This document shows, piece after piece, positions 1,809-55,036 of a stretch of DNA of 64,000 nucleotides. The notes under the pieces were generated by a model. It worked only from the letters and a program-made list of their open reading frames with translations. It did no database searches and was not told the origin of the DNA. The first letter of the stretch is position 1. Every line of letters begins with the position of its first letter. Where the stretch lies: assembly GCA_036172245.1 (NCBI GenBank), contig JAYWIR010000003.1, forward strand, positions 4,836,001-4,900,000. The letters are read 5' to 3'. Made by a program: the position numbers and the translations under genes. This stretch comes from Raillietiella orientalis. Lineage: Eukaryota.

Positions 1809-1926
1809 TCTCTCGCTTCCGGCGCACATCCTCCTCTGGGACGCTCCAGGCGCAGCCACCCGTTCCCTAGGATCGGAAGCAGGGGTCCTCGCCTGGGCAG
1901 AGGGAGGAAGGAGGGAGCTTCACGGG
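1809..1926 (+). repeat. 118-bp dispersed direct repeat, copy 1
   Basis: TCTCTCGCTTCCGGCGCACATCC...GAGCTTCACGGG recurs at 3802-3919 with 2 substitutions. Confidence 0.95.
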
Positions 1927-2345
1927 AGGAGGGGCAGCAGAGGGGATAGGCAAAGGTCGGAGCCCCCCATCCCTGCCCTCCCTCTGGCGGAGACGCCCGC
2001 TTGCCTCCTTGACAGAGCGATTCCCCTGGGAAAGGCGGAGGGCGCGCGCGCACCGCACCTGTTCCCGAGCAGCCGAAAATAATCCGGGAGCCTCTCGCGC
2101 GAAGGACGCGTTCCCGCGCTCCTGGCAGGAACTTCCTCTCCGCTCGCGGCCGAGCGTGCGTCTTCCGGGCTCGCATCCGACTCCCCTTAGGACGACTGGC
2201 GCGCTGGGCGCGCGCCTCCCCTCCAGGAAACAGCAGCAGCAGCCCGCCGTCCCCGGTCTTCGGCCTGTCCCGGTGCCGTCGCTCCTTCCCTTCTACGAAA
2301 ACACTTCCCTTCCCCTCCCCCTCCCACCCCCCTGTCTCCCTGGAG

Positions 2346-2846
2346 ATGCCCCTCCTGTGGAGGAAGCCCTCGCCGGGGAGCGCCTACCGCCTTCTGAAGG
2401 TCCTCTCTTGCGCCGTCTGGGTCGTCGCACTGTCCGTCGTTCTGAGCATCCTGGGAGTTGGGTGCTACACCCTGGTAAGCAGCCGCCGCCCTCTCCTGCG
2501 CTTGTCGCGACCTCTTCTCGCCGCCCCAGGGGCATCTTTCTGTCTCCGTTTTATCGTCCCCTCCGCGCAGCTCCGACCGACGGGAAAGGCAGGCAGCAGC
2601 AGTATTCCATACCCTTCTCCGGCTCTCTCTCTCCACCCTCCGATCCCCGCTCTCTGCAAACACACACACACACACACGCAGGGAGCTTTCCGGGAAGTCT
2701 GCCCTCCTCCTCCTCCTCCTCCTCCTCCTGATTCCACGACCTCCCCTTTTCCGAGGGAGTTGCCGCCTCCCTTCCTCCAGATGAGGCGCATCGAAAGAAA
2801 GTCCACTTGCCGTGCTGCAGGGGCACTCGTCGTCGTCTCGCCCTGA
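2346..2846 (+). CDS. Candidate 2-exon single-pass membrane microprotein (~64 aa; exons 2346-2474, 2781-2846)
   Basis: ATG, then the hydrophobic run LLKVLSCAVWVVALSVVLSILGVGCYTL ending exactly at CTG|GTAAGC. A pyrimidine-rich acceptor CCTTCCTCCAG| at 2780 is in phase. No homology recognised. Confidence 0.3.
   Translation: MPLLWRKPSPGSAYRLLKVLSCAVWVVALSVVLSILGVGCYTLVSSRRPLLRLSRPLLAAPGASFCLRFIVPSAQLRPTGKAGSSSIPYPSPALSLHPPIPALCKHTHTHTQGAFREVCPPPPPPPPPDSTTSPFPRELPPPFLQMRRIERKSTCRAAGALVVVSP
2660..2729. repeat. (CA)n and (CCT)9 microsatellites
   Basis: Visible at 2660-2677 and 2703-2729. Confidence 0.9.
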
Positions 2847-3801
2847 GTACCAGTGAAGGACCTTCGTACGCCCACAGGAGTGCTTTTCCGTGCATTGGAA
2901 AAAGAAAAGGGAATGGGGTGGGGGAGTGAGCGCGCCGCCTGCTGGTTAAGGACGAACGAACGAACGCGCGCGATTCGCTTCTGCGCACTGCTCTTCATCC
3001 TCGCACGCTCTCGCGCCCTCGGAACGCAGCAGCAGAAAAACGGACGGGCGAAACCCCGCAGCCCATGCAGCCCGGACGTGGCCCGCCGGCAGAGCGCCAC
3101 CAAAACTCCTACGCCGCCGCCGGCACGGACCCGAGACGCGTACAGCCTTCCTTGAGCATCCAATGGCTCGATGAGCCGAGGCAGCCCGATTCCGGCGCCG
3201 CCCTTCAATGACGCAACAATCCGTAACGTGAAGGATTACCAACTGCCAGATTCAGGCCTTAAAAGGCGACGCCGGCGTCGGAAAAGCAGGCGACTCAGAC
3301 CGAGGAAATCTGCGTGTGCGCGTGTCAGGGAGAGAGAAGAGGAAGAGATGCGACGCGTTGCTCTGGTGATCCTTGTACTTTCGGGGATCTGAGCAAAAAG
3401 CCTTTTCAAGGAGGAAGAATGCCTTGGAATTTTAATGATTCATTCGTTTCACGTTGAAGAGGGGATGCGCAACGGTCGGGTTGCACAAGACAACCGCAAC
3501 CGTCGCTCTGAAGCGAGGAAGCACCGGTAAGCTCTTGCTCGCTGGAAACCACACGGAGGTTTGCGCCGTTGCCACGACGAACCTGGCTGCAAGATGCGTG
3601 CTTGAGGCATACGCCTGTATCTTCAGACCGAAACGGTTGGGAAATGTTTGCGACCTTCTGGAACACTTTGTGCAAACATTGATTCCGATATAGCCCCCCT
3701 CCCCTTTCCCGAGCAACGAATATAAAGATTTCTCAGGGAATTAGGTGAACAGGAATACGTTGTCTTCCCTTCAGCTCGGAACGCATTATACGCTTGCGGC
3801 A

Positions 3802-3919
3802 TCTCTCGCTTCCGGCGCACATCCTCCTCTGGGACGTTCCAGGCGCAGCCACCCGTTCCCTAGGATCGGAAGCAGGGGTCCTCGCCTGGGCAGAGGGAGG
3901 AGGGAGGGAGCTTCACGGG
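3802..3919 (+). repeat. 118-bp dispersed direct repeat, copy 2
   Basis: Near-identical to 1809-1926. GGCAT occurs at both junctions (3798-3802, 3918-3922). Confidence 0.95.
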
Positions 3920-4333
3920 CATGTACATGTCGCCAAAGATAGGGACGTTAGCTTTCCACATTTCCCGAATGCTGCTGACGACTTTTCCCCCGGTACGGAA
4001 TCGTAGGCTGTGTGGACGTCATGTCATTTCCTGAGGCGTGGCTGGGTGTGCGGTGAGCGGAATTCGGTGGGCGCCTGCGCTCTTTTCGAAATCCGAGTGA
4101 CTGGTGGACTTTGGGGGGGTCGCGTGTACCACCACACTGCCTTCTCCCCATCGTACAAACCCCATTTACCTACTGTATGCGTTTGACCATGTTTCAGATC
4201 AAGAGATTCCAGATCCCTATTATGACAGCTAAATATTTCCTGAATGCCACGTCAGGGCCGCGAAACTACAGCGAGGTAAGTGGGAAACGCTCGTGCAATC
4301 AACCCACAGCCTTTAATGTCCTTCTGTCAGCAT

Positions 4334-4725
4334 CCCCTTGAATCCACGTAGCGCCATGTAGTAGTAACTGCATCCGGGGCTAGCCGAGTACCCCCCATTG
4401 AATCCACGTAGCGACATGTAGCAGTAACTGCATCCGGGGCTAGCCGAGTACCCCCCATTGAATCCACGTAGCGACATGTAGCAGTAACTGCATCCGGGGC
4501 TAGCCGAGTACCCCCCATTGAATCCACGTAGCGACATGTAGCAGTAACTGCATCCGGGGCTAGCCGAGTACCCCCCATTGAATCCACGTAGCGACATGTA
4601 GCAGTAACTGCATCCGGGGCTAGCCGAGTACCCCCCATTGAATCCACGTAGCGACATGTAGCAGTAACTGCATCCGGGGCTAGCCGAGTACCCCCCATTG
4701 AATCCACGTAGCGACATGTAGCAGT
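4334..4725. repeat. Minisatellite: 60-bp unit, ~6.5 copies
   Basis: Unit CCCCATTGAATCCACGTAGCGACATGTAGCAGTAACTGCATCCGGGGCTAGCCGAGTACC. Lines 4381-4680 are identical and only the first copy has a few differences. No spacers. Confidence 0.98.
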
Positions 4726-7700
4726 GTGCGCACGCCGCTCTCGGACCTTTTTTTTTTTTTTTGCAATCTGATTTAGTTGGGAATAGCTGGTTACTAAGGA
4801 TTTATTGAAAGCTTATCCTTCATAATTGCTTTGCTTCGTGTCGTGCGAATGCAATGGTTGTTTTACAAACTCTTTTATTCATTTTCTTCAGAGTACCAAT
4901 AACCCTGAGGTAGTAAGGTAGCTGACCTCTAACGTCACAGTCAAAGTCGAGGGCATTCGTGCCAAGTGGAGACATTGGCTATTCCCATTAATAAAGAAAT
5001 CAGTAGACTGTCACGTGCTGATTTCTTGAAGTTTTCGATTCGCCGGGCGCAGGAGGCTCTCCGGAACGGACTCGCGGCCCACAGCAATAAAAAAAAAAAA
5101 AAAAAATGGTTCCCTGCGCCTCGAAAATGTCCCCGCGCGACGCCGCCGATGCTTCCGTCCAAACTGCGGAAGGCGAGGGCGTACCGCGCGTGAGACTGCT
5201 CCTCCCCGGAAGGCAGGCGGGAATGGGACGCGCCTCGTGGATGCGATCCCGAGTGTTTCCGGTCTCCCGTAGGCAGCTTCCGCGTTTTTGCTGGAGCGTT
5301 TCTCTGGGAGCCCTCTTGCATATCCGCATCTTTTGCCTCGCTGTTCTTACCTGCCGGTCGATCCCGAAGAGAGAAACCTGACGCTGCGAACCCAGGACCA
5401 CGCAAAACACGCTATCGTGGCGACGCTCCGCCGAATCGATTCCGCCGCGCCAACACGGAGGAATCCCCCACGCTGTCGCATCCAACTCGGCAGCATTCCA
5501 TCTCGCGAGGAGCGATTCCACGTTTCGGGAAGGGGACCTACGAGGCGACGGAAGACGCTGCGTGCCCGAGGGTTCCCTGTTCAGCTCGTTGCCGCGGGCC
5601 GGAGGATGTTGCACGCGGAGAGGTAGGATTTCGTCTTTCGCCTGCCGCCGAGTGCCAGGACACTACCGGAAGGAGTTTGTACTGATCACCCCTGCACCCT
5701 CTGCCTCAGCAAGTAGCCCGGAAGAGAGAGAGAGAGAGAGAGGCTCGTGGGCCTTCAGGAAAGGAAACACGTTCCGGCATGCTTTCTGGAACCGTCTGGA
5801 CCCATGGTTACCGTGGAGATCTGGAGCAGAAACATCACACTCTAGTCTCATGTGTCCCCTCTCCCCGTACAGTACATTAGGGGAGCGTGAGTAAGTAGCC
5901 TATGCCATCAGCGAGCCCCACGCAGAGCATAAAGAAGCGCAAGTTGTTGCGTGGGGTCGATCCAAAGACGCAGCTCGAGGACCGGGGGTCTCTGCCCGCG
6001 CCTAGACCGCTCGTTGGATTCTTGCGATGTCTTGTACGGAAGTGATTCCAGGAGCAAGCGGAGAGCACTCTTGGTTTTTACGAACCCGAGCGGATGATCC
6101 TAAGGGAACTTTTGCTTCGGGATCCCATGTGTCCGCTTGGCAAGATTTTTCGTTCGCCTCCCTCCCCCCCCTCCTCACAGTACGAAAATTTGGGATTAGG
6201 ACGATTCAGGTGCCCGCGTGACCCTTCTTTGTTCCTCGAGAAAAGGAAGAAAAAACAAATACAGCTGCGAGGTTGCATCCACGTCTCCAGAGCAGACCTC
6301 CCAACGGAAGAGGCCTTCCACCACGGCGGCGCCCCCCACCGCGTTTCCATGGTTGCTTGCCAACCCGGCCAGTGCGTTTCCGCGGTGCGCTCCGTTTCGT
6401 CGAGCCGACGCTCGCGGTCCAAAGATTGCACGCACGCGCAGAACACATCCCGAGAGAAGCTTTCGTTTCGTCGCGTGTGAGCGTGCGGATGCACTCGCGT
6501 TTTCCGGATGTCCTGTACCAGTGGAACCAGGTCTTATACATTTCATATAAGGGATTCGTAAGAAGTAACCAGGGATCTCAGCAGAAGGTGCATCATTCGA
6601 AGAAAAGAAACGGCAAAATAGAAGGACATCCTTTTCTGCGTGTTTTGTGTATGCTGCAAATGATCGCTCGTCCTCAGCTGACCGAAAATCATTAGCCATT
6701 AATTTATGAAGAAACGAAGTATCACGAGAAAGGAATACTCCGACGTGTGCCTCGGCCCCAGTTCCGGAACTGGGCGGCAGGGAGATGTTTCGGCAACGGG
6801 AAGGCACGCTGTGGAGCACCCACCCTCAAGGAACGCCGCCGCTTCGACCCCCCCAGTTCGTTCGCTCCCTTGCGCATCAGTTTGAGGTGAATCAGCACGG
6901 GGCGGGAAGAGGTCGACTCACCTCTACGCCCACGTCGTCGGGAGTGTGCAGCAAAAAAAGAGGCACCCAGCTGTTGCGCTCGTTCCGTACGCGCAGTAGA
7001 CGTCGCCCACTTTGCGTCCTCTTCCTGGTATTTCGAAACGCCCCCTCGGGTTGAAAGCAAGAAAGTGGGATGAACTGGAGTCCTCCCAGAGGAAAAGCAA
7101 ACTGTAGGGCAAGTAGCTGCCTCTTTCCTGGCGACCGTCCTCTTGGAAGAAGGAGGAGCGTCTGCAACACGGATTTTCGATCCTCGGTCTCGGTGAAGAA
7201 GGGTTGCGGCCTGTCGACGTGGCTCGCACTCGGAGGTCGAACGCGCCGTCCAACCACACCGCCCTCGCGAAAGAGCACGGGACCGAGCGGGAGCGGAACA
7301 GATTCCGGCTTGCAAGGGAACTCTCAAAGGCCAGCTGCCGAAGAGGAGGAAGCTCGGTTGCAGGCGGACGTGTTGGAGACGGGAGAGAAGGAGCGCGGCA
7401 TGCGAATGGACCGCCGGACGCGCCAACAGCGGAGTAACGGGAAAGGAAAAAACACGGTTAACGGAATGGCGCCGCCTGCTGTGCCGTCTACAAGAGACGC
7501 CTGAAATCCAGCATGCCGAAACGCGGTCCTGAGCTCACTTCTGTTGTGGAAAACACTGAAAGACCGGGACGTGTGGACTGGGACGACCACAGACGAATGG
7601 GCCCGATGCGAACCGTGGATTTCTTGCCCGTCCTGCTTAGGCACGAGAAGCTGACGTTCGTCCAGGAAGGAAGAAGAACAGCAGCAGCTTCTTGTGCGCA

Positions 7701-10522
7701 GACGTCTTCGAGCGTCCTTTTCGTTCGCAACCGCTCCAAACAGCGGTGCCAAATCGGGTGCAAGGAAGGGTGCAGTAGGCCTTCTTTAGATAAGCGCGCG
7801 TGACCTTGAGGAATGGGTCTCGGGGAGGCAAAGCCAAAAAGAGATTGCTTAGCATGACAGCACAAACAAAGTTTTTTGAAAGGATGATGCAGAAGAACCA
7901 CAGGACCATGGTGGCAGGCGTCCTTGACTGTGCTCCACGGAGCGTTTCCAAGTAGAACGTCATGACTCTCTCGTGAACACGCAATTTGCCTTAAATTGAT
8001 CCCCAAAACAAGATAAATACGAAGGAGTGGCAGGAGAAACACGGAATTCGTTCCACCGACATCCATTGAATTTCACCTTAACAGACCTCCGAAGAATAAA
8101 ACGGAAGTTTGAAACCGAAATTTAGAAGCTGAAGTGTGAACGAAGGTGGGTGATTTTCGTATCGTTGGTTTCGCTTGTCGCAGCGGTGTTGCGTTTACCG
8201 GTGGGGGGACCTGGATGCCCCACGAGCTCCTCAGGCAAGCGATCGAGCACATTTTCCAGTGCCACACATCATGAAGGGAATCACGGAGTGCCACAGACGG
8301 TTTTTTTTTCCTTTTTTTTTTTTTTTTCTTCTTCTTCTGCTGCTGCTGCTGTTCCCTTTTTCGTTCAGCAGTCGAGGATTCGATCGTTCGTTTTTGATTT
8401 CGGCCCCACCGCAAGGCGCTCCTCGCTGACCTGTCCCAGCTCCGAGGTGCCTCTGCGCCTTTATCTAGCGACGTGGGATGCCTGTGAACAGGACGCACTT
8501 CCGGGACGTACGCGACGGTGCAGGGCGAAACGTGACCCGCCCGCCTCTGTCGAAGGCCGAAAAGACTCGGTGCAGAGCAGCAGCGAGGGAAAAGGTCGCC
8601 GTTTTGGAAGCAAAATCCAGAGAGTCAGCAACGCAGCTGGACAGGGATTTCAGGCATTCTTACTTGCTTAAGGGGTGCTGACCTCTGGGGACATCCAAGG
8701 AAGCCTGGTCTTCCCTGGCGGGGCTAGCTTGCTGCCCTCTGGCAATCCTGAGTCATCTCGAGCCCAGTTAGCACTTCGACTCCCCTTTACAGAAGTTGCT
8801 GAAATATCTGTTGAAGAGGCGGGTCGGGGCTGGTCCCTTTTTTTTTTTTGGCTAAGGAAGGAAACTGAAAATCATACTTTTAATCTAGGGTAACAGCTGA
8901 ACGCGCACATAACGAGCTGCTCGACCTAGTATTTCTGATTCAGTATCGACGTCACTTTCAAAAAAAAAAAAAAAAAAAGATTATAATCTCTCCTGTAATT
9001 GCTCATCGTTCCGTCCGAAAGTTATCTGCAATTTTGGGCAGGCCAGGTGAGGACTTTGACAAACAAAATTACATTTTCCTTTTCCACTTCTGGATTTAAG
9101 AACTTTCATCCACCGACGCCATTTTTGTTTCCGTCAGCCTTTCCGTCTTCTGCTTTATCCAATGTCTTCATTGGCGTCTTTAAAAACTGTTGGTCACACC
9201 AAGACAAATTGTTTTGTGTGTGCGTGAAAACCGCGAGAGAATTTACGTTTTTAAGTATGGTAATTTCTATTCATTTAATATATATATATATATATATACT
9301 TTTTTTTCTTTTACGTGATCTAGTTTTACACAACTCTTGCTTTTTCCCGTATCCAGAATTAAAGCATGTTATGTTCAAGCATCATTGTGAAATCAGTCGG
9401 AGAGGGATGGAACCTTCCAGATCGACCGGGAAGTCATTTTCGGAAGTCCGAATGACACGATTTTCACCCCAATCCTCGAAAAGCCAAATTCGGTCTTCGC
9501 CATTAGCCCACGATCGCTTCAGAGACGAGCTGCAGGAAGAGTTCGGAAAGATGCCAAACACAGATTTGGAGCTTCGACGTCATGCCCTGAGGGTTTTCAA
9601 TAGGCTTCATGCCCCCCTACTGCCTCTCTCTACCATTTCCCCCCTCCGCCCCCCCCCCCTTTCCTGCAAAACTTTATCAGTTGCGGAACAACCGATCGAG
9701 CATACTCTCCCGCAGGGTGTCGGGTCCCGCCCAGAGCTCCGCAACGCGATCGAAACGGATGAGAGTGTTCCCCTGGGCGACGGATCTCACGCAGATCTCA
9801 TCTTTTCCAGAACTTCACTTTGCCCGACTGCCTGGAACCACATTGCCAGTACGCGCCCTGCGACCTGCCCAACTGCACCGACCCCTGCGCGGGAAACTGC
9901 TCGGCTGCATTTTTCGGGTACCCCGGTGGAGACTAGCGCTCCGTGTTTCAAGATGGCGTGCCTGGACTTTTGTTTACGTGTGCGGGACCCACGCATTCCG
10001 AGCTCGGCGGTTCCCGGCTTCTGGAGAGGCAGCGTCCTTGGCAGTCCGGAAGAGGTAGGGTTCCTCCTCCTTGGCATGTGGTGGTGGCGGCGGCATTCCA
10101 CCCTCGTGTGGGTGGGCGTGAGCAAGTTTCGGTTCGTGGCTCTGCGTGAGTGAGGACGTTTCCTCGGGTGGTGCCGGGGACGACTTGGGAGTGGTAAAAC
10201 AGCACTTCTCCTCGATTCGTTGCGGTTAATGAATGGGATCGGCAAATGCAGTGTTCTTTGATTCTGTGTACGTGGAGGAAGAGGAGGATAAAGTGTTCTT
10301 TTTTTTTTTTTTTTTTTTTGCGTTGAAAAAAAAAATACGGTGTTTGCAAAAATATGGTTCCGAGAGTTCATCCGCTTGAAATCGTGGGGGTTTTTGTTTT
10401 TGTTTTTTTTCTTTCTTTCTTTCGTATTTTGAAAGCCATGGTAATCACATCCAGAAGTGTTTGCTCGTTTGATCTTTCCGGATTCTGTCAGTGGCTCATA
10501 ATGTTGTTTCCTCAGCGTCGTG

Positions 10523-23354: not shown

Positions 23355-24312
<958 letters not shown>

Positions 24313-24317
<5 letters not shown>

Positions 24318-24329
24318 ATATTTTTTATT
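24313..24329. terminator. Back-to-back poly(A) signals: AATAAA on + (24313-24318, contains the SRM stop) and AATAAA on - (24329-24324)
   Basis: CAATAAATATTTTTTATTG lies between the convergent SRM and TDP-43 units. Confidence 0.7.
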
Positions 24330-24394
24330 GAGGGATGCCTATTGGAGTTCAGATGTGGGGATAGCAGCAACACTGGTAGGAGGGGGTTGGGCAT

Positions 24395-24618
24395 TCAAGT
24401 CCAGCCATGGTAACCATAGCTGCTATATGTGCCATCTGTGGCTGTGCCACCAGTTCCTGCACCAGCACCTGCCACTTGTGAGCCACCATCTTCATAGTGG
24501 TGCCCCGCATAGCCACTGTAGCTAGCTGCTCCATATCCAGGTGGCCAATAGCTGCTGCCATTGTTATAGCCGTACCAGCTGGAGTAGTTGGTGCTGGCTG
24601 CACGATACGTAGGCACAG
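24395..24618 (-). CDS. TARDBP: Candidate alternative terminal exon of TDP-43 encoding a 74-aa Tyr/Gly/Ser-rich low-complexity tail
   Basis: Acceptor TGTGTTTTAG| (phase 1). Reads (A)VPTYRAASTNYSSWYGYNNGSSYWPPGYGAASYSGYAGHHYEDGG...YSSYGYHGWT*. In frame with the donor at 25725 and followed by AATAAA at 24329-24324. Confidence 0.65.
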
Positions 24619-24899
24619 CTAAAACACAGGCAGCGCTGTTAACCTCCTGCAGGGTAGCCTAGTGAATTTCCCAGCCCAAATTTTTTTTATTCGGATTTAA
24701 ATCTGTGCAAATGTCAAGGAACTACTGGGTTGAATGTTGACTGGTAGATCATAAGCATAGTTCACTGTATCCCCAATGCACTTACCTGGGGCTGGCCCGC
24801 CCTCCCCCTGATGCCCTCCATAAAAAACACAACAGTGGGGAGGCTGCATAGCAGTGCTTTATTGGTGGGCCCGTAGACACCTTGTACAAACAAGCCCTC

Positions 24900-25186
24900 A
24901 CGCACTGAATTCCAGCAAACATCAGGCAGGGGGAGGGGAGCATATATAGCATACACTCAAAATATTCTGTACTCATCCTACCCTTCCCTCACAGCATTCA
25001 GCATTCTTAACAACATGCACACTGCACTGCATACAGCATATGGCATACAAAACCCAGACACTGCTACCCTGGGCACAAAACTACATACAACAAAATGGAC
25101 ATGGCATACAGGAGCCTCACAAAAATCAGTCAATAGCCCAGGGAGCGGAACACCCACACATAAGGGGGCATGATCAAGGCAGCCCT
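24900..25186 (-). promoter_or_regulatory. UG-rich TDP-43 3'UTR segment (putative autoregulatory binding region); proximal AATAAA at 24863-24858
   Basis: The minus strand is dense in TGTATG/TGTG/TGAATG words, e.g. TGTATGCAGTGCAGTGTGCATGTTG and GAATGCTGAATGCTGTG. It is established that TDP-43 binds UG-rich RNA in its own 3'UTR. Confidence 0.5.
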
Positions 25187-28100
25187 TCACATATAATGCT
25201 TAAAGCCACTTTTGTCTCTCTTCAACCAAGCCTCATCCTGTGCAACAGCCCGAGCAGCATCTCCAGTCCCACCCTGTGCTGTCATCCAGGGAAGATAACC
25301 ACCCTGGGCAGCCCCTTGAGGAGCAGGTGCTGCAGGAGGTGCTCCCTGATAACCCGATGGGTAGCTATGACCAAAAGAATGGCCTTCAGGAGGACCTTGT
25401 GGAGGTGGTTGCTGCTGAGGATGTTGCAAGTTATTCAACAACCCCCAGCTGGCTTGATTAAGCGCAGCAGCCACTAGGGCAGAACTCATGGGATTCAATG
25501 GTCCCAAATTGAAAGGACCTAAATGATTAGGTGGACCTTGCCCTGGAGTCTGAGCTCCCTGAGAAGGACCCAAATTTGTATTAATACCAAGAGAACTGCC
25601 CAAAGCAGCTAAGTTAGGAAGCTCCCCTCCTCGCTGACCCCAACCCTGACTGGTGGAATGAAATGTTGAATGTCCCTCACGAGAAGGATCCAGGCGGCCT
25701 GGTCCACGACCCCAAGGGCTCCTACCTGCAGGGTCTGATTTAGGAGCCGCACTGCTGACGTGCACTGAGATGCCATTGATGATATGATCCTCCCCACAGA
25801 GAGTCTGAGCTATCTCGGGATCCAAAAATGTAACAAATGCGAAGGCTCGAAATGGTTTGGGAATAAAAACATCCGTGACTTCTCCAAATCTAGAAAAATA
25901 ATCTCGCAGATCTTCAGCAGTCATATCTTCAGTGCACCGGCCAACAAAAACTTTGCAAGGAACATGTGGCAAATGATGCTCACTGTAATAATTTTCCTAA
26001 AAAAAGGCCAATAAATCCAAAACGACTCATGCACTCATAAATTACTTACACAGTTAACTTTAGAATTGGGTATCTTCACATCACACCAACGCCCTTCTAT
26101 CATATGGCGTTGCGACAAAACACGCATCTGGGATTCGAAAGAACCAAAACGTATAAATCCAAATCCTTTGGATTGACCAGATTTTGGATCCTTCTTTACT
26201 TGCGCCATCAGCACTTCACCGAACTGCTCAAAATACTGCCTGAGTTCGGATTCATTTGTTTTCCATGGCAGACCAAGTACAATTAGATCCGAGCACTTCT
26301 GTTTATCGATACGTTTCGTTTTAGCTATGGAATTCTCCAGCAATTCATCCGATTTGCGTTTATTCTCTGCGGCTTTTATAAAACATGGATCAATATTTAC
26401 ATCACTTAACACATTTCATACATTCTTTTCCCATAATAATCAAATTTTTTTTTCTGATAGAAAACAGTGTTATAATAAACAAAACAAATTTCGAACCAGA
26501 AAATGAAAAACGAAAAATAACAATTTTTTTTCCCAAAATGTTTGAAATGCTACGATCAAATTAGGTTTTTTTTTTTTGACTGCTAATTTGACAAAATGAC
26601 CTTAATGAGGAGAACCATCATTAAGGTTTTTAAAATCTAAGCGGTGTAATTATTCTCATCCCATTTGCAAACTTCACTTTCATTTCTGATGCTTATTTCT
26701 CTAGTTCAGTTCTTTTGAATTCAACTCACATAAATGAAAAGCTGTGGGGAGTGGATTTCACTTGTTCAAAAACTTAATCTGTTTCATCAATCATAATCTC
26801 AATCTTAGTGTTCAGTTTTCTGGCAACTGCTTCTAATTAAATGTTGTCAGGCCAATGCAACCTTCTTCCAAATACATGGTTTCTATTGAAATGCTACATA
26901 ATTTTGAAGTTTTAATAAAAAAATTGACTTGTTACGCATTGAGTTATATTTATTACTCCTAAATCACACAATTCTTTCATCCCTAACAGTTTAAGTACAT
27001 AATCAAATTTCAACATAACTAGCTTGGCTGCGATCAATTGATCAATAATCTTTCTCTTAATAAAAACACATACAATACTAAATTTAAGTTTGATAATTAA
27101 CATATATAGTATTGGACAAACCAAAACCAAAGCTCTTTCACAGCATCAACTACATAAACACACAAGAACCGAACACTCATTTTGAATAACACTTTTGGAA
27201 AACGTCAAATATGATGTGACCTTTACTTTCTTTTCATTTACACCTACATGCAGAATAACAATGCAGATGTTTACTTTAATTAGATAAAATACTCGAGTAA
27301 TTAAGCAGAAAATGCCTAAATAAAGCACAAAACACATGGAAAATTTTGAAACGATAAGAGATTCGAACAGAAAACTACATATGTTGACAAATCTTTTTTA
27401 CAACACACAAGCACCAAAGACTTTCTTTTTCTTTTATAGTTCAAAATACCCCTTTCCTTAAATTTTCGATGATCAAATATCAAAGTTCACACTAATAATC
27501 ACACCTTAAATCCAGCAGATAATGCTTTACATAAACGTACTAACATGCATGAGATATACATTATCACATATAAAATGCATAGATATGTCACACAAAATGT
27601 TTTTACTCCTACATTTCTATCTGTACATATTATTTATGTCAGCTCATGTTCCTGAGTAATATACAGTTAATGAAATGGTCTCAGAATATTTTTGAATTTA
27701 CTTTTCAATCTCCCAAAAAGCAGAAAACTATCTTGTGGAATTATTGTTATTTTGAGCAGAAATCAAAAAAGTTGCTACAGATTCAAGATCGTGTCACTAT
27801 GGTTACCTAAAATGTGATTTTAATGCTTATTTATCATTGTCAAACTAAATCTTTTAACTAGTTAATTAAAGCATCCGAACCTTAATTTACTAAACATTCA
27901 CCCAGGAACCAACTATCTGAGATATCAGAGATAGCAGTAGCTATCAGAGATAAAGTAGCAGCAACATGAGCATCAGTTCGAAACTTGATTTATTCAGCTT
28001 GTGTGTATTCACTAACATTTTACAACCATGAAAAAATAGTTCAAATAACGCTATTTGACAAATCGAATCCCTACAGCCTTTTTATTTTCAATTCAGTCCC

Positions 28101-31044
28101 ATCAATAAGATGTACAAATTTGTAGCTAGCAATATCAGGAAGAACTTCTCTTTCCCAGAAAGTAAATGCATTTGAAATATATCTTTGGTTAAAAATAACC
28201 ACATCCAGCTCAAGATTTGCCTTCTAAGTCAGCTGCATTCACATTAACCACCACATTTTTTGGTATGGGGAGTCACCTATCCAATATCTTTTTCATATGG
28301 TTGAACAGATACTAACATGGCTAATAACTTCTAGAAAAAACATCAGTATATTTGTACATCTTGAGATTACATCCAAGCAATGTATTCTGCAAGTTCCAGG
28401 AGCTTTTTTTTTTTTTTTTTTTTTTTAACAATTCAAAAAAGATCTGCACTTACTTAGCATTCTTTAATATTTGCATACCTATGCATGTTAGATGCAATAA
28501 CCTAAAACACTAGTTATGATTTTACATATATGATTACTTGAAATTAAAATTTAGATATTAATGAAACACAAATCATAAATAGCATATAAATGAAAATTGT
28601 CTGGATGACAAAACAAAACTTGTCGATGCCATAAAACTATAAAATAGTATTGTTAGCAACAAATAGAATCAATGGATTTCTGTTTAATAAAGCATTACAA
28701 ATTCCTAGATATTGAACTGTGATAGGTTACTTTTGAATTCACCACAGCTTGTGAAACCTCAGAGCATTATCTACACTATTCACTTGTGAAAATACAATTG
28801 CTGTTAGTTTTACAGACAAATAATGTCTACAAAGCAAAATAAGCAATCAAACAAATAAACCAATGAACTGCATAAAATGTATGCTTATTCATCTTATAGA
28901 CTGTGCTTATACATATTTGAACAATATTTGGATGTATGTTCATGTTACTTTCAACAATGCATTAACAACATAATCATATCATCAATGTATATTTTTCAAA
29001 ATATACTACACTTGGTAGCAAAACTCTCATTCTGAAATTGATGGTTACTTACAGTACATATTCCACAATCAAAATACCAATATCTGTGGGCAATTTTATT
29101 TCCAAAATTCAGTATTCATGGAGGGTCTCAAACTACTTTATTTGGATGTTTCAATCATTTAGTACTTTATTGAAACCACTGAGTCAACACATATGAAATT
29201 TATAGATAGAAAAAGTTGCACACATCTGCATAATCACAATGAACACTTATTACAGAAAGGTACACAGCAATGAAATTAGTGACACTACATATGATAAAAA
29301 GTTTCAACAAAGTAGCTGAATGTACTAAGACTATGAAAACCACAAGACTAGTAGTAACCCAAACTGAAGGCTATTCAGCATATGACACTAGTAAAAAAAA
29401 AATCCCTGCTAACTGGAAACCCGAAAAAATACTTCTCGACATAAATCAGAAGACTAAGCTTATATCACTCTATAGTCTAATTCAATAATTCTGCTAATGT
29501 TAGCTCTGAGAAAGGAAAAGCAGTTGTGGACTAATGTTTTGGCACATTTGCTTTAAAATCTTAATAAGCATTTCCTCAAATAGAGCACTCCAGATTCTGC
29601 ATACTGCTGCTGAGCCTGGCCATTTAATTTATGTTCTACTGTGCTTTCTACATAAAGACTGAATTAACTATTAGCAGCCTTGCAAATAAGCATGTACTTC
29701 ATGTTTATAATTTCCGAGGAAAATTTTAATTCACCTAGACTTAGAAAAACAGTTTAGTCTTAGATCACTTTACAACTCAACTGTACATAATTTTGATACA
29801 GAACTAATACATGAAGGTCCTATAAAGGTAGCAACTATAAAAAATAAAGTTTTCAGGCTTCCTCTGGAATGGAATCAAAGTTGGAATTCTTTGGAATGTT
29901 CTTTTGAACTTACAGAAAAACTTCAAAAATTTCAAACTGTATGCTAAACTTTCTTCCAAAAAATTAACAACTTTTTTCCTTTGTATTCATACTCTGAGTA
30001 TTGCTAGAAAAAAGCACATTACATTTTATTAATACTCTGCATATACTTGAAGGAATGATAATCATAAATTGTTAAGCTTTATGCAGCAAGCATGTCTGAA
30101 CCTTTTTTTCCAAAATTTGTCATAAATAACTGCACTGTTTCATGATTTCACTAAAAATTTCATAAGAAACAGTAGTATTTGTCAACACAATGTCAGATTT
30201 CCTATTTTAAGATCATACTATAAAGAAATCTAAAATAAATTCAAGAGACTTGACTTTCTATGAATTCAACTTAATTAAACTAAATATGATCTCAATGAAT
30301 AATTGAGATCTACACTAATTACTGCATTTCTATTGTTATTTTTTTCGGATAAGCATCAAAGTTTTACAAATCATTTTCAATCAAGTTTTCTAAAGCAATT
30401 TTCGTATTATTATGGAAGATTCTCATGGCATGGAGACTACTTTATAGTAACAATCATCTATCAATAATAAGAATTAAAAAAATTCCATGCTGCTCTCGTA
30501 TCATCCCTTGCCCCTTTATTCGTGTTTTCGTAGCTACAAACAAAACGATTTATAAACACTTGAAATTTACTGGGGCTGACGGCAATCCTTGCATACTCTT
30601 CATTTACGAAGTCAAACTTATGAAAGCATGAAAAATCAAAAGATAAATACACGAACAGAAATCCGAGAATCACATGAAATAGTTGCCTTAAGAAAACAAG
30701 CATAACATGTTCTCAATCAAGACACATTTATTGTAAAACATCAGTTACATGAAATGAAAACCACATCTTAAAAATTCAACAATTTAAAGCAATTTTAAAC
30801 ATATACCTTTGGGAAACACGCATATGTATACCAGATTTCCCCATCCATCTTCTGGAGGATGTAATCGACCATCTACAAGCCTGACTCCTCTAAGGGAACG
30901 TGTTTCTGGGTGACGAAACTTCAAACCACAGCATCCGGGGAACTGAGCCGCAACAGTCGATAAAAGTAAAGTATTATCTTCTTCTGTAGGTAACTCAATA
31001 TATTCCTCATTTTCATCCTCAGCTACTTGTATATACGAACACAT
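25187..31044 (-). CDS. TARDBP: TAR DNA-binding protein 43 (TDP-43/TBPH), 451-454 aa. Exons 31044-30807, 26366-26059 (or -26050), 25996-25187
   Basis: [51 protein letters not shown]1 [21 protein letters not shown]2 [15 protein letters not shown], and a G/Q/N-rich tail with the conserved helix [15 protein letters not shown]. Confidence 0.96.
28454..28501 (-). other. Candidate 48-nt poison (PTC-containing) cassette exon in the long TDP-43 intron
   Basis: GTGTTTTAG|GTTATTGCATCTAA...GAATGCTAA|GTAAGTG. In the TDP-43 phase it reads G-Y-C-I-stop. Confidence 0.45.
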
Positions 31045-34058: not shown

Positions 34059-36985
34059 CTAGGTTCTCATCCTTGGATAACCAAGCCATGCAAACAGGAC
34101 ACTGTAAAAAAGCATTACAAAAATATTGCCATTTGATAATTTACTTGCCTGATGTTCAGAAGTAGTGGAAGGTTTTGGGGGAGACCAAAATAAAAACGAC
34201 TTCATCCTTTCCCTTTGGTCTCCAAGCCATGATGATGTCTGTGCCAGAGTGGCATTCAAGAAAGATGATTTTTGATGTTTTCCTTGTTCTTCTAACTCTT
34301 CTTCCATTTGTTGAATGTATTCTTGTTGGTAACCAAACAAAAATTCTGTTTCTTTCAATTGTTGTGACAACCACAAGAAACGTGACCGTTGTTTTTCAAG
34401 TAATGCCTCCTTTTCTCTAATCTCATCCCAAGCATAACGTAGTAGATGCCGCCAGTACTCTGCTTTATCTGCATTACTCTGATTACAGGTATGACTGGCA
34501 GAATTGCTGTCCAGTTTATGTTCTTCTTCAATACTGCTCGTTTTTTTTTTCCTAACTTCTAATTCCTCAATACCATTCTTTAATTTTTTCCTTGCTTCTA
34601 GTTCCTCCATAATGTTTGCAAGTTCCCTGCTTTTGGCTTCAAGCTCTAAATCACGTGACTGAATTCTCATGTTCAACAGTTTCTGCTTTTCATAGCAATC
34701 ATCCAATAACTTCTTTTCATGCAAAAATTGTGATTCTACTTCCCTAATTAGCTGTTCTTTCTTTTGCAATTCTCTTGTTTGCTCCTGCAACAATTTCCTC
34801 TGTACTTGCAATTCTTTCACTTGTTCTTCATATAGCTGTCTCATAATACTGCACCGTTTCCAAAGTCTACTTTCTTCATCAGGTAAGTATTCATAAGATA
34901 TTCTATTGTCCTGAAGCTCCCAATCGAAATTTCGACCTTGTTTTTCTCCAAGTTTTCCTAACTTCCTCAGTTGGTTGTTCTCTTCTTCGAGACGCAAGAT
35001 CTCTCTTCTCATGGAACCCAACTGCCATTGAACTGTTTGTAATTGAAAGTCACTATCTTTGTTCTCAGTGAATTGTTCTGATGTTTCATCCTCTTCTCTC
35101 ATGTAGGACTGTGATGCATGTGATAGCCTCTTGGAACATGATTCATCCTCATAATATACAGAATGAACAGAAGCACTGCTTTCTGAATGATCTACCTTAC
35201 TTAATGTTTCATATGTTTGTGTTTGGGAAGATATGCATTCTTTGGAATTTTTTTCTTTCTGAACACCTGCATTAACATTCAAAAGAAGGCTCATAAATTG
35301 CAGCTCTTGAATTTCTTCATCAGAGAGTGATATTCCATTGTTCACTTCCGATCTCATTTCAAAAACACTTTTTTCTGTGACCAATTTCTCAGTTTGGGAT
35401 TCCTCAATACTCCCATGTGTCTCAGAACAGTTTATGTCTGATGGTTTCCTTTCCTGGTATTCATCTAAAACTTTGGATTGCTCATCTTGGCTAGCTCCTG
35501 TTTCTGGGACTAATTTTGAATTGCTTATTCCTTCATGGAAGTGTGGGATCTCAGTATCCTTAGTAACCAGAGGGTCATCTTCATATAAAGGTGGTGACTT
35601 AATCACAGCACTTGAATCCCACTCAAACTCTGTATTAACAGTGGGCTCTTTCAGATCTAACAGCAAAGAATCCATAAGGTCTGTAGATAAGCAGTTGCAT
35701 TGGTTTGATGAAAACAAGGAGTCTTCCGCTGATGGCCGAACTGTTTTTAATGAAAAACATGCATCTGAATCCATTTCTAACTTCTGGTCAGATCCAGATT
35801 GCTGCATGACTTCAGTGAAACCAACAGGAATTTCATGATCTTGTTTATTTGCTGTTTTCTTTTCAGGAAAACGTTTACATATTGTAGCTTTTTCCATGTG
35901 CGATAACACTGCTTCCCCTTTTCTTGCATCAGTGCTGCTCAAAACATCTTCATGTTTTAAAAGTGGAACTAAGCATGGAAAGGAGGAATAACTGCCAGAT
36001 GACTCCAATGAAGTTCTGTATCCATAAAAATGTTCCTTTTTGCAATGGTGTAATGACTGTATCCTCAAAATGCTACTAACCTTTTTTTGATGGAAATGCT
36101 GATCTACTTTTATCAGCAATTTTTCGACATATTCCAAAATTGATTTTGACTTGGAATGTGATACTCTGGAACTCTCTTCTGGGGCAAGACATTCAAGACT
36201 AGGCACATAGTCTAGACTTGCAGAATCAGTATCACTTGACTGGTTCTGTAACAGCAATGTATCTAGAAGATCAGATGTGCTTACTGTAATAGCTACCTGT
36301 TTGCAGAGAGATTGACTCAGACCAAGTAGCATGCTTCGTACACAAAAGAGACTGACTGACTTGTTTAGTTCATCTGATGACTTGATACTCTGATTACAGA
36401 TATGGGAAGCACTTTCTTCCATACTGCTATATTCACTGTTCACGTCATACTAAGATAACTCTGATGAATGAAACAGTGCAAAACATTCACCTGGGAAACA
36501 GGGCCAGAAATCTCCAAAAACGAACAAGATTTACATCTTGAACCTTGATGTTGTTTATGTGGCGAATGATTCAACTGGTTCTCTATGTCTCTTAGAATTT
36601 CCAACAAGGCTTCTTCCATTTCATCTATTTTAAAATAATGACAATCAACACATTCACCTACAGTACACATACGGGATTGGGGTTCAGACTATTTGTGCTT
36701 ATTTAATAAACTTTTGGATTCCCGGTAAACTGTAAACGCTTGAATGAACAAATTCACATTTCAAATCAAGGAATGCTTAAAAAGAACCTTTCGAACATTG
36801 GAAACTGCAATCAAAATGCAAATTTTTTTTTAATAGAATCATATACGTGACTACAATTCATGGGAAGCATTCAAACGATACTTATGCAAATGACTAATAC
36901 GGCTGTTACCTGATGGTTCCTCATTTTCAAAGTATTCCAGCACAATAAATGATGACTCGGAACTGTTTTCTGGATCATCATCCAT
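34059..36985 (-). CDS. Uncharacterised acidic/Ser-rich coiled-coil protein with a C-terminal hydrophobic (tail-anchor-like) segment. Large exon 36449-34059, exon 36624-36491; further 5' exons uncertain (possibly from ATG 36985, MDDDPENSSESSFIVL)
   Basis: A 2.4-kb stop-free frame in AT-rich DNA, with E/K/Q/L heptad-like stretches in the C-terminal third, ending GNIFVMLFYSVLFAWLGYPRMRT*. GT-AG introns at 36490-36450 (41 nt) and 36657-36625 (33 nt) join upstream frames. Confidence 0.75.
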
Positions 36986-47629: not shown

Positions 47630-50600
47630 TCAGGCTTATTATAATTTCTTCATTGAAACTCTTAAATTCTTCAATCAGCTAATGTCAGTGCTTTCTTAAA
47701 CATAATGCTAACCTAGCAAGACAAAACTTTTAACATGTGGCAACATGGTCATTAATAATGCTGAATCTACACAATGTACCAGCAACACTTTCAGATCACA
47801 CTGGGATTAGTAGAAGCCCTCCTGGAGTTGAACAAAATAAAAATCACTAAACACTGGAACAGAAGGCATATTCAACCATGGAACAGAAACTGACAATTTA
47901 TTGTGCAACATGAATACATTGAAAACTCAATTTAACCAATTCTGCGGGCCACAATATGCAATGCTTCAGCGTTTCACACTGCTGATTACAATTTTCAGAA
48001 TAATGTTTTCAACATTATCAGTTATTGCACATAGAAATTGAATATCCTCCCATATTATAAACATGCTTAGTTCTTGGTACTCGCACCTTCGGAGCACTCC
48101 TAAATTATGAGCATATAAGAATGTCCAATTGCTTTTATTACTAGCACAAATGAAAAAGTGCTGCGATTGGCAAAATCACGTTCGTGAATACGAGTCATTT
48201 AACAGACGGGCCGAAAATATTTTTAAAATCACCGAAAGTCGGCCGTGTATGCACAAATTTTTTTTTTTTTTCCCGTGGAATGAGAATCCGGCACACCGAC
48301 AAAAATTGCTCATCTAACGGTGACTGCAACGAATTCCAACTTCTAAATATCAACACTGAAACGCCGTCATCAAATCGTCATTGCTCGTAAATCACGAAAC
48401 CGAAACACCAAACACGACGATACAAACCGAACAGGGAAAAGGGAGGGAAAAAACACACACAAACACACACACACTGAACACGGAGGCCCAGTAAAAAGGA
48501 AAAAAAAAAAGAAAGGAACGTGCACACCCGACTGGATGCTCGGTTTCCCCTTGCAGAAGAGCAGAAGCCCCACAACTCGGGAGCCACTGCGGGTTCAAGC
48601 CAAAGCGTGTCCTACACTCAAACCGGGCCCATTTGGGGGACTGCAAGCACAAACAATCAATGGGGAAAAACACGAGGGACGGTGTGTGGGAGAGGGAAGG
48701 GGAGAGAAAAAAAAAAAAAAAAAAAAAAAAAACAGAAGAAGAAGAAGAAGAGAAAGAAAAAAAAAAATCATTCCAAACACGAACGAGCGCACAAAAGTGG
48801 GGGTACCATTCACAGCAACCTTTGCAATCCCCCCACATGTGTGTGTATGCCCACCGAAATTTCTTCAATTGGAACAGCAGCTGCCAAATAGCTAAAACCG
48901 GATCGGCGGCTGATTTATGGTTATTTGGTCAGCAGAGGATTGGGTTTTCCTTCCGAGACGTTCGTTCTTGAAAAGAGGCCGCCACCACCTTGGGGTGGGC
49001 TTGCGATAACCTGCGTCAAAATCCGTTGTCCTTCTGGTATCCCTTCCGCCTCTCCCCAAAACGGAGGAGCCGATGCAGCACTTGGCACCAGCATATGTAT
49101 ACGTGCAGGGGCAATGGGCACACTTCGGCTGGGGCATCCCGGAAGATTCCCCGCGATCTCCTGTTCCATTTCAAATCGAACTTCACCATGCAATGGCATG
49201 GAAGTTTGACAGTACAGCTCGTGTTCCTCCCCCTTCGAAAAGCCACGGCTGCCGACTTGTTGTCCCCCACTCGAACGGGATCACAGGAACGCTGCGCTTG
49301 TATTCCTGGGCGCCAGGGGAAGAGGGATTCATTTGGATGCTGCTGCTTTCGGGAATGCATGCACCGTCATCCCATAACCTGTGCTCCCAATTTCGCAAAC
49401 GGCTTTATTCGTTATTTCGCCACTTTTTGTACATTGGAAAACAGTTCTTGACCAAGTTGTACAACAAGTTACGGGTTTCCTTTGAGAAGCACCCACTTAG
49501 TGATACCAGATTTTTCAACTCGAATGAAATCAATACTTCAAAAGGGAAGATGGTTTCTCCCTTGGCACCATAAACCTGATTCATAGGAATGAGGGGCTTC
49601 GTGATTTCATCTATAAATGCCATTTCGATTTATTCATTGAGAAGTAAGTTATTAGCATTCGGTGACTGCATCTGTTTCATTTCACTTTTGTTCGAATTCT
49701 TAAAACATGAGATTACGACAAAAGCCACGTGTGCACCTTTTCTGGGTCGGAACATCACGAAAATATGTGCTGGAGAGACCCAAAGAGTTTCCATTTTTTA
49801 TAGTGATGACCCAACTGTCATACATACAGACTAAGAAAGGAACAAGGCTTGAATGCTCGTATTCAGGAATCTCCAAGGCTTTCCTAATTTGGGGCTTTTT
49901 CTCCATAAAATGCTTTCCTGAACTTCGTAGTCTTTTACTATTTGATGTACACCTGATTTAGGTGAGAGGTAACTAAATTCTGTGGACAGTGGTCGTTCTC
50001 GGAACGGTAAAAAAAAAAGAAAGAGCAAGGAATGATTCAGCTCAAACCCCATCGAACGTTCAGCGTCATCAAAACCATAACAGTAGGCTCTTGAGTCCAA
50101 CTTCATAGAAAAATTAGTAGAGCTGTAAACGAACATAAGTCGGTGTCAATCGTGAAGCCAAAATTAGGAAAGATAAATTCAAAGGAAAGGGGTGGAGAAT
50201 CCGAGTTTTGTTCGGTTAGACCTCCGCGCTTCCTCAGTTACTTCGGCAGCTCGGTTTCTGTTCCCACTTCGTTCGCCCTGACTCTCTCGTTCCTGCGAAA
50301 AATTCTTTTGATTTGTCCCTTATCCCCTTTTTCTCTCACGTTCTCCTATCAGTCTCATTTTGCTCATTTGGCTGCTGCGGGTTTTTCACATGCGGATGGT
50401 CTGTGATCTCTCTGAATCTTAATGGTTAACCTTCAGAGCGACAGACTGACTTTCCTCCTGCCCACGGCAGCCAGGAAGCGACCCTTCCTCTGCTTTCAGA
50501 GCACGTACGACGCCATCAATAGAACAGGCTTCCGAAGTTCCCCCCTTGGAAACCACACTGACCGCACGCTCTGGTGCAAAAAGAGGCTTCCAAAAATCAC

Positions 50601-53600: not shown

Positions 53601-55036
53601 CATCTTGGGAAGAAATCAAACCGGAGATTCGGGGCAAACCTTGGAAGCGGAACTCGAGATCACTTTTTCAATTCTTCGCTTCTCGGAAAAACGAACGAAT
53701 CTGAGGAGGAGGGATGGCAGAAGCGAAGTCGGGTGGCAAATGAGCTCGTAAACGTGCAACTCCGGCCGAACCGAAAGAAAACCGGAAACTCTTGTGTACC
53801 TGGGGAAGGGGGGGAGGGGACACCGGTGACAAGAAGAACCGGAAGTAGGTTTTTCGCGAAAATCTAATCAAGAGCCGAACACTACTTATACACGATTGTA
53901 AGCAGCTGACTTTGAAGATGGCACGGAGTGAGAATTTGGATTTCAGCTGCAATTCGTTCGTCTCTTCTTCGCCGCATGCAACACCACGCATCAGCACATG
54001 AAATGATGAGCCGAGCTAATCCATAAATTAATAACAAATTGGATTCAGAATGACGCATAACTGACAAACAATTACTGATAAACTAGATTCAACAGAAACG
54101 AGATCCTGAGCGGAAGAATTCTTGTCTGTGCACGCCTGTTGGGTTGGGTTCCTCCCACGCTGCTGCTGCGCACAATTTCGTGGATAGGCTCACGGCATAG
54201 CTCGCGTGGACCTATTGGAACCTATTTAGGAGGTGTGGGGGGGAGGGGACCCACAGGATGCCACAGGCCCATCGCACAATCGCGTGCTCGTTGGAGGAAA
54301 TGCGTGAATGCATATCGGTCTTTCCGTCGCACCGATTTCCGACGTGATGTCACTTCCGGCTGCACCAACGCCGGGGCGGAAAGGGCCTGCCATGCGTTTC
54401 TGGTGGCTTTTGTCGAAAGAGTTTCGGGAAATGGGGATCAAGCCGAACGAAGCCAACCGCGGGGATGGACCGAAAGAGTCCTGGCGCTCCTTCGCTGCCA
54501 GCTGCTGCGACATCAGCCCCCCCGATTCGCTTCTTCTTTAGCAAGAGATCTGAAGGCTGCGCCGACACGTTTCCAGGCAAGTACTGGGAAAGTATTCCTA
54601 TGGGTATCCCCTGCCACCATGTGCACGCTACGTGCGTACGGTAAAAGCAGGAATCAGGCCGGGAGCCGAACGGTAACATGCTGAAAATCTAGTTAAAGGC
54701 TTCATCCAGAAGTCCACCGCTGCAAGCATCAAAACTGCCTGGGTGGAAAACAATCAAACGAAAAGGGGAGAGAAAAAAAAAAAAAAAAAAAAAAACTCGG
54801 GCACTTCGGGCACTGATTTGCATGGCTCATCGATTTTTTTTGACCTGATTGAAAATGAGGAAAGAAAGAAATCAAACCCTGAGATTTTTCACACCGTTTA
54901 TCACCATTGCTTTTAGCTCTCTAGTTTCCTTTTCACCTACTTCTTTCAACTGCGACTACCCATGCATTGAAAAACAATTTGCTATTCTAACAGCTGCCAA
55001 GTGTCAGACACATTGGTTGGTCATCTGGAGTGATTG

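Follow-up and report, generated by a model that had tools for sequence, protein, structure and literature searches.

We analysed a 64,000-nucleotide (nt) stretch of the Raillietiella orientalis genome (contig JAYWIR010000003.1, positions 4,836,001 to 4,900,000), referred to below as the window and numbered from its first letter. The minus strand from 31123 to about 24305 is an arthropod TDP-43 (TBPH) gene. Beyond the stop codon of this gene lies a stretch (24618–24395) that, on good evidence, serves as a coding exon or did so until very recently. The best explanation, put forward here tentatively, is that it is a distal terminal exon of the TDP-43 gene, used when the proximal polyadenylation (poly(A)) site is bypassed. 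If this exon were joined from a donor at 25726, just past the second RNA recognition motif (RRM2), the canonical C-terminal tail would be swapped for a different one. A tail switch of this kind had been proposed in an earlier reading of the DNA made without database searches (the sequence-only reading).

According to this explanation, most transcripts would stop at the proximal poly(A) site, whose signal is at 24863, and would code for the canonical protein of 456 amino acids (aa). On bypass of that site the acceptor at 24618 would be used, and 24618 to about 24305 would be the real distal terminal exon of the gene. Joining from 25726 would take out, in an intron of 1107 nt, the canonical tail, the UG-rich 3' untranslated region (3'UTR) and the proximal poly(A) signal. 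The resulting protein of 351 aa would consist of the N-terminal domain, RRM1, RRM2 and a 74-residue tail that is rich in Tyr, Gly, Ser, Ala and Thr and has nearly no aliphatic residues.

The TDP-43 gene and the exon beyond its stop codon

Three coding blocks of the gene were placed in the window by tblastn with five arthropod TDP-43 proteins (slashes mark splice points here and below):

30807–31044, minus strand: TDP-43 coding exon 1 (N-terminal domain), from tblastn, the RNA joint 26372/30807 and translation
26050–26372, minus strand: TDP-43 coding exon 2 (RRM1), phase-0 end, donor TGT/GTAAGT, from Pfam RRM_1 and RNA joints
25187–25996, minus strand: coding part of TDP-43 exon 3, with RRM2, the canonical Gly/Pro/Ala/Gln-rich tail with helix motif, and the stop at 25189–25187, from Pfam, tblastn and RNA over 25616–25995

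Exon 1 opens with the ATG at 31044 and ends in phase 1 at the donor AAG/GTATAT. It was 66–76% identical to residues 1–79/82 of arthropod TDP-43 proteins in the tblastn search. Pfam RRM_1 was found in exons 2 and 3, and the relatives have PF18694 and PF00076. The protein therefore carries the N-terminal domain followed by two RRMs that marks TDP-43/TBPH. When the tails of relatives were compared, the low-complexity tail with its conserved helix motif and arthropod-type end was also found, and the 456-aa canonical protein ends in ..KHYM as the relatives do.

The open reading frame (ORF) with RRM2 and the tail gave 875 protein matches at E <= 0.001. Among the best 120 of these, all the named ones were arthropod TDP-43 proteins, the closest named relatives being ostracods. 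The nearest of the 120 was a 272-aa protein (P0001, 68% identity), followed by that of the ostracod Darwinula stevensoni (64%).

RNA was taken from X1, a single public run of a metatranscriptome that is available as contigs without strand, a form in which rare transcripts drop out. Its contigs leave 24538–25615 and 24219–24381 uncovered. A 1021-nt X1 contig joins 25616–25995, 26049–26372 and 30807–31123, and so confirmed the three coding exons; it reaches 31123 in the 5'UTR. Read with the cut moved by +1, the joints give introns at 25997–26049 (53 nt, phase 0) and 26373–30806 (4434 nt, phase 1). Intron 2 of the gene is thus in phase 0, not phase 1. The coding differences between this contig and the window (7/7) are all synonymous and in third positions. 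The identification of the gene as TDP-43 in the sequence-only reading was therefore borne out by tblastn, by Pfam and by the exons joined in RNA.

The candidate exon lies downstream on the same strand:

24395–24618, minus strand: coding part of the candidate distal exon, acceptor TGTGTTTTAG/, 74 codons, phase 1, stop TGA at 24397–24395, from periodicity, segmentation and a base-depletion run

The acceptor TGTGTTTTAG/CT sets the exon start at 24618 (TTTTAG/), 569 nt past the canonical stop. The frame that it opens, called the tail frame below, encodes one split codon and 73 residues. Gly makes up 22% of the tail, Tyr 16% and Ser 14%; the 73 residues include 12 Tyr, 3 Trp, 4 charged residues, 2 aliphatic ones and a single Gln. 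The strict motifs GYG, SYS and SYG occur, three in all, and 3 of the 12 Tyr are within [G/S]Y[G/S].

Codon-phase composition in this frame was strongly skewed. The 219-nt frame gave a chi2 of 42.0 for nucleotide by codon position. For 354 chance ORFs of the window the mean was 7.3 and the 95th percentile 14.5, and 0.6% reached 42. The comparison windows gave maxima of 19.8 (the 4.4-kb intron) and 7.5 (the adjoining 3'UTR), and the canonical tail gave a mean of 29.9. In a sliding profile the periodicity formed an island at about 24380–24620, with the rest of the 3' region flat. A repeat search found no tandem or dispersed repeats that would account for it.

The strongest single signal was the near absence of T at codon position 2, which corresponds to the lack of aliphatic residues. 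The best two-boundary maximum-likelihood segment for this property was 24613–24395, with T in the second position of 1 of the 73 codons inside and 28 of the 118 outside. This segment opens 5 nt past the predicted acceptor and closes on the stop of the tail frame, short of the stop at 24349 of a second open frame on the same strand. When both strands, every phase and all four bases are considered, it ranks among the two longest single-base depletion runs of the window, and it is the one of the two with the higher overall frequency of the depleted base (0.20).

An open frame with codon-phase composition, as generally seen in coding exons, was thus found between a splice signal and a stop. The phase-specific composition and its bounds argue well for a coding exon in the tail frame, and that the stretch is a real, transcribed coding exon in this frame we consider likely.

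Splice and poly(A) signals

The signals that would connect the exon to the gene are the following:

25720–25728, minus strand: candidate donor inside the coding sequence, CAG/GTAGGA, exon end 25726, phase 1, just past RRM2, from a rough position weight matrix score
24864–25186, minus strand: UG-rich proximal 3'UTR, putative TDP-43 self-binding region, from TG+GT density
24858–24863, minus strand: proximal poly(A) signal AATAAA followed by a GU/U-rich stretch, from sequence
24780–24788, minus strand: perfect consensus donor CAG/GTAAGT, exon end 24786, 3' of the proximal poly(A) signal, top of 85 GT sites
24619–24785, minus strand: putative intron of 167 nt from the perfect donor to the tail-exon acceptor, including the AATAAA at 24691–24686, predicted from signals
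24324–24329, minus strand: distal poly(A) signal AATAAA, 66 nt past the tail-frame stop, from sequence; palindromic with the plus-strand signal

The sequence CTGCAG/GTAGGA directly follows the codons for ..PKSDPA. Scores were assigned to the 85 GT sites between 25994 and 24626 with the rough matrix mentioned above. The donor at 25726 scored 4.76, the highest value in the exon-3 coding sequence and the second of the 85. The RNA-confirmed donors of the same gene scored lower (2.66 and 1.6). When the exon-3 coding sequence was shuffled synonymously 5000 times, an equally strong phase-1 donor fell within the 90 nt after RRM2 in 1.3% of the shuffles. The window holds 31 donor sites as strong as 25726 on its two strands. 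The DDX11 region, where the sequence-only reading had GTAGG donors in use, has five GTAGG sites on its plus strand, and Pfam on the adjoining ORFs located no exon ends that would confirm any of them as a donor.

Donor, acceptor, the 74-codon frame with its 12 Tyr and 3 Trp, the Tyr motifs and the AATAAA that follows the frame (24329–24324) were all found where the sequence-only reading had placed them (the donor at 25726/25725 in phase 1, the acceptor at 24619/24618). The 1107-nt interval between 25726 and 24618 also holds what had been claimed for it, namely the canonical tail, the helix motif, the UG-rich 3'UTR (in the top 0.08% for TG+GT) and the proximal poly(A) signal. The joined translation is in frame and gives an isoform of 351 aa, compared with 456 aa for the canonical protein, which corrects the earlier estimate of about 346 aa. 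With a donor inside the coding sequence past RRM2 and an acceptor past the reference stop, the interval would be an intron of the exitron type, as far as signals can tell.

TG+GT reaches a density of 0.269 per nt in the 323-nt 3'UTR; the mean for the window is 0.119, and no more than 0.08% of windows of this size, with both strands counted, are as dense. Five TGTATG, two GAATG, one TGCATG and one TGTGTG elements were found in it. On the minus strand AATAAA occurs at 24863, 24691 and 24329. A UG-rich 3'UTR with a proximal and a distal poly(A) signal is, at the level of sequence, the layout of an autoregulatory module, and binding of TDP-43 to the UG-rich element would be the predicted means of control.

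Regulators besides TDP-43 may also bind here, as TGCATG (the Rbfox-type hexamer), the two GAATG and the fivefold TGTATG are all within 24999–25110. The heptamer GGTAGGA of the coding donor (25720–25728) recurs at 24976–24984 as AGG/GTAGGA, with the exon end at 24982, past the UG-rich element but ahead of the proximal poly(A) signal. A splice from 24982 to 24618 would cut out the proximal site and leave the coding sequence untouched.

The exon could be entered by at least four other routes: from donor 24786 with an ATG at 24849, from a donor at 25273, from the donor of exon 1, and by a non-coding 3'UTR splice from 24786. The 9-mer CAG/GTAAGT of donor 24786 occurs only twice in the window, both strands considered. 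With the ATG at 24849 this donor gives a 95-aa ORF in the tail frame, and with an ATG at 24821 a 101-aa ORF in the second frame. A 30-nt micro-exon ending at the same donor (24815–24786), in phase 1 at both ends and keeping the frame, was set aside because its acceptor is GAG/.

The strength of donor 24786 bears on the view that the distal exon is real and non-coding. Read-through transcripts would then lose 24785–24619, or be spliced from 24982, and end distally with a long intron-bearing 3'UTR for dosage control, like the mammalian 3'UTR introns. This would agree with a donor that is the best of the 85 GT sites and one of two of its kind in the window, with the good acceptor at 24618, with the presence of both poly(A) signals and a UG-rich UTR, and, from the results below, with an unspliced RNA contig over 25726 and a tail for which searches found no homologue. 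However, it leaves the strong phase-specific composition and its exact acceptor and stop bounds unexplained. Furthermore, the frame is intact despite 12 TAY and 3 TGG codons, each of them one step from a stop. We regard a non-coding exon as unlikely.

The same donor could serve a separate small gene. Twenty-one codons from the ATG at 24849, ending in ..YGGHQGEGGPAP, would be joined in phase 1 at 24786 to the distal exon, and the 95-aa, Tyr/Gly-rich protein would be made from a transcript with its start within the 3'UTR of TDP-43. This joint keeps the frame, the donor is perfect, and the 12 codons ahead of it are rich in Tyr and Gly and have no T at position 2. However, the ATG is only 9 nt past the proximal AATAAA, inspection by eye revealed no convincing promoter element, the periodicity bump in the window 24740–24859 is small (chi2 of 9.2), and the tail lacks a homologue here as well. 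An independent gene of this kind appears quite improbable.

The tail exon may also be joined to TDP-43 from another phase-1 donor. From 25273 (AGG/GTGGGA) nearly the whole canonical tail would be kept and the new tail added (502 aa), and from the exon 1 donor a protein of 153 aa would result. Both routes are in frame. Donor 25273 scores 1.62, and exon 2 has a confirmed donor with a similar score (1.6); RNA also confirms the donor of exon 1. On the other hand, donor 25726 scores clearly higher than these, and neither joint was seen in the X1 contigs. Use of these donors would be very improbable.

RNA over the exon and points against the tail swap

Part of the exon is covered by RNA, and a convergent gene ends close to it:

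24382–24537, strand not assigned: 156-nt X1 contig, 155/156 identical, with one difference at 24506
23673–24318, plus strand: last coding exon of a spermidine/spermine synthase gene convergent on TDP-43, Pfam Spermine_synth 1.5e-57

The difference at 24506 changes GCG to GCA, which is Ala to Ala in the tail frame and Arg to Gln in the second frame; it is a single data point. The synthase stop (24315–24317) sits within the AATAAA of its own gene (24313–24318), and after this signal the next AATAAA or ATTAAA on the plus strand is only at 25862. From the layout of AATAAA on the two strands, the RNA over 24382–24537 more likely came from the minus strand. At 24313–24329 the convergent genes have their poly(A) signals back to back, where the small palindrome TCAATAAA appears on both strands, and the 3' ends of the two transcripts would overlap by a few tens of bases.

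The synthase contig of X1 (23987–24218) shows 11 differences from the window over its 232 positions; of the 7 that were listed, 3 are non-synonymous. Identity to the window is about 99% for the TDP-43 and tail contigs. With 11/232 differences in one and 1/156 in the other, the synthase and tail contigs are unlikely to come from one transcript of one organism, and the synthase contig probably has its source in an organism or gene copy other than that of the TDP-43 and tail contigs. X1 seems to include a second, related organism or gene copy.

These results bear on the simplest alternative, in which there is no exon, the frame is a chance product of local composition, and the contig stems from synthase read-through, antisense RNA or library DNA. 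Chance ORFs are common in the window, the minus strand has two open frames over the stretch, and part of it is overlapped by a 77-aa ORF on the plus strand (24292–24522). The contig has no strand, and in depth it differs little from the synthase contig (2.8 and 2.6, respectively). The want of a tail homologue would also fit. However, such an origin would not account for the periodicity and its boundaries, and two frames were open together in only 0.19% of 20,000 mononucleotide shuffles. Read-through is further opposed by the differing identities of the two contigs and by the synthase AATAAA at its stop codon. We consider a chance frame quite improbable. The plus-strand ORF itself was rejected, as it spans only part of the periodic island, and each plus-strand frame has at least one stop inside it.

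A number of results speak against the tail swap, and the first group concerns the frame. The length of the ORF is uninformative, since the window contains 376 stop-to-stop ORFs of at least 70 aa (and 141 of the 147 that reach 112 aa have no Pfam match at E <= 1e-5). The second minus-strand frame, 24618–24349 (89 codons), is also open, and it equals or beats the tail frame on codon-usage measures. Codon log-likelihood, position-specific composition and synonymous-codon scores, trained on 823 codons, did not separate the two frames and placed both in the top 5–13% of chance ORFs. When the codons of the tail frame were shuffled, the second frame stayed open in 56% of cases; in the reverse shuffle the tail frame was open in 26%. 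This suggested that the second frame is open largely because of the composition of the tail frame, but the shuffles prefer the tail frame by only about 2:1.

The second group concerns the junction. A donor as strong as 25726 appeared somewhere in the exon-3 coding sequence in 21% of the synonymous shuffles, and the matrix behind its score is a rough one. The perfect donor at 24786 allows other routes into the exon (the 3'UTR intron and the independent 95-aa ORF). The RNA junction from 25726 to 24618, which the sequence-only reading had named as the thing to look for, was absent from the X1 contigs, and no RNA joint leads into 24618. The sole X1 contig over 25726 is unspliced to 25616, in a data form from which rare transcripts drop out. 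Two joints were seen in X1, both of them constitutive introns.

The third group concerns relatives. Of 535 candidates in a word-indexed search for tail homologues, 0 were scored, and a second such search, set to near matches, gave zero candidates. A phmmer search of 1.84 billion representatives gave one match, to an EGF-repeat protein, which was judged spurious. A metagenome scan with the tail gave 595 pattern matches, 0 of them confirmed, and no locus encoding a relative. The 120 listed arthropod TDP-43 proteins contained no clear tail match; BLASTP without composition correction gave only low-complexity matches to their canonical tails. All 50 of the 50 relatives inspected after RRM2 have tails of the canonical type. 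According to a recent preprint, donors inside the coding sequence are joined to acceptors past the stop at 7/8 jawed-vertebrate TARDBP loci and in 0/8 non-gnathostome homologues, including four drosophilid TBPH (bioRxiv 10.64898/2026.10.06.756961).

Other searches were equally negative. Against PDB the tail had only matches with E > 1, the ESM Atlas gave no usable match, and Pfam found nothing in either minus-strand frame or in the plus-strand ORF. Scanning metagenomes with exon 3 yielded one locus (L001), a distant (59%), intron-less TDP-43 with uninformative downstream sequence. With no TDP-43 in the databases closer than 68% identity, the absence of tail relatives is weak evidence.

Of the proposed tail switch, then, the coding-type exon in the tail frame, the RNA over part of it and the vertebrate-like 3' layout have stood, and the junction was not seen in the X1 contigs. 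Whether the exon is joined to the TDP-43 coding sequence at all we put at close to an even chance. The specific junction from 25726 to 24618 is more doubtful. Somewhat less probable again is the full proposal, in which the gene would have two alternative tails of different chemistry, one Gly/Pro/Ala/Gln-rich with a helix and the other Tyr/Gly/Ser-rich without aliphatic residues, and the same splice would also delete the UG-rich element and the proximal site. The idea that the tails differ in phase-separation chemistry comes from composition only.

Known systems and other features of the window

The TDP-43 tail drives normal self-association as well as aggregation in disease, and the known alternative isoforms just lose it. 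In human, as described in PMC9253772, donors in exon 6 just past RRM2 are joined to 3'UTR acceptors, and the isoforms lose the tail and gain a unique end of 18 aa. The arrangement here resembles these events (sTDP-43/TDP43C-spl, the exitron-type splicing of TARDBP) in the place of the donor past RRM2, in the acceptor past the stop and in the replacement of the tail. It differs from them in that the vertebrate replacement is short (18 aa in human), whereas here it would be a low-complexity domain of 74 residues with other chemistry. The vertebrate events also have junction reads in those accounts, whereas ours is known from signals. It is plausible that the R. orientalis gene carries a variant of the vertebrate-type, tail-removing TDP-43 splicing.

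In zebrafish tardbpl, according to PMC3658164, splicing switches between a truncated and a full-length tail and responds to loss of TDP-43. There too splicing sets the C-terminus, but the choice in that account is between a truncated and a full glycine-rich domain, not between two low-complexity domains. A literature search, judged from its listings, turned up neither a Tyr-rich alternative tail nor tail switching in arthropod TDP-43.

Mammalian TARDBP autoregulation involves a TDP-43 binding region, a proximal poly(A) site within a removable intron, and distal poly(A) sites. Here a UG-rich element lies between the stop and the proximal AATAAA and a distal AATAAA follows, and candidate introns at 25725–24619 or 24981–24619 would remove the proximal site. 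Unlike the mammalian case, the strongest donor (24786) is 3' of the proximal site, which would be left in place when the 167-nt intron of this donor is spliced out.

Domains of the FUS type have many [G/S]Y[G/S] repeats, are rich in Ser, Tyr, Gly and Gln, and are poor in aliphatic and charged residues. The tail is similar to such FUS/hnRNP-type domains in its contents of Gly (22%), Tyr (16%) and Ser (14%), a likeness that is compositional only. No sequence relationship to them was found, and Gln, unlike in FUS, is nearly absent (1/73).

If the tail swap is real, self-regulation of TDP-43 would alter the kind of condensate-forming protein that is made, and not merely its amount. It would also mean that tail-removing, exitron-type splicing had an independent origin outside jawed vertebrates and so evolved more than once. 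A FUS-like tail on the same RNA-binding core would then be a natural experiment on tail chemistry and condensate behaviour. If the stretch is only a 3'UTR exon, the results would still suggest that this arthropod gene is laid out much as in vertebrates, with a UG-rich element and two poly(A) sites, which bears on the age of TDP-43 self-regulation.

Some other features of the window were noted. Its base composition is strongly mosaic, as the TDP-43 intron region has 30–35% G+C and the flanks have 55–63%. The flanks (1–8000 and 50000–64000) contain many overlapping frames of 100–400 aa on both strands. The only Pfam match in them at E <= 1e-5 was a weak WW_USP8, with no significant stretch, at 4330–4812. 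By far the longest ORF of the window is a 796-aa open frame on the minus strand at 34062–36449, which had no Pfam match at E <= 1e-5. It is set in AT-rich DNA and may be an unrecognised gene or the ORF of a mobile element.

Only one other single-base depletion run in the window is as long as that of the tail exon. It is at 61762–61981, where T is found no more than once in 74 codon positions of the plus strand (for the minus strand, A). This run may point to a further low-complexity coding segment in the right flank, which is GC-rich.

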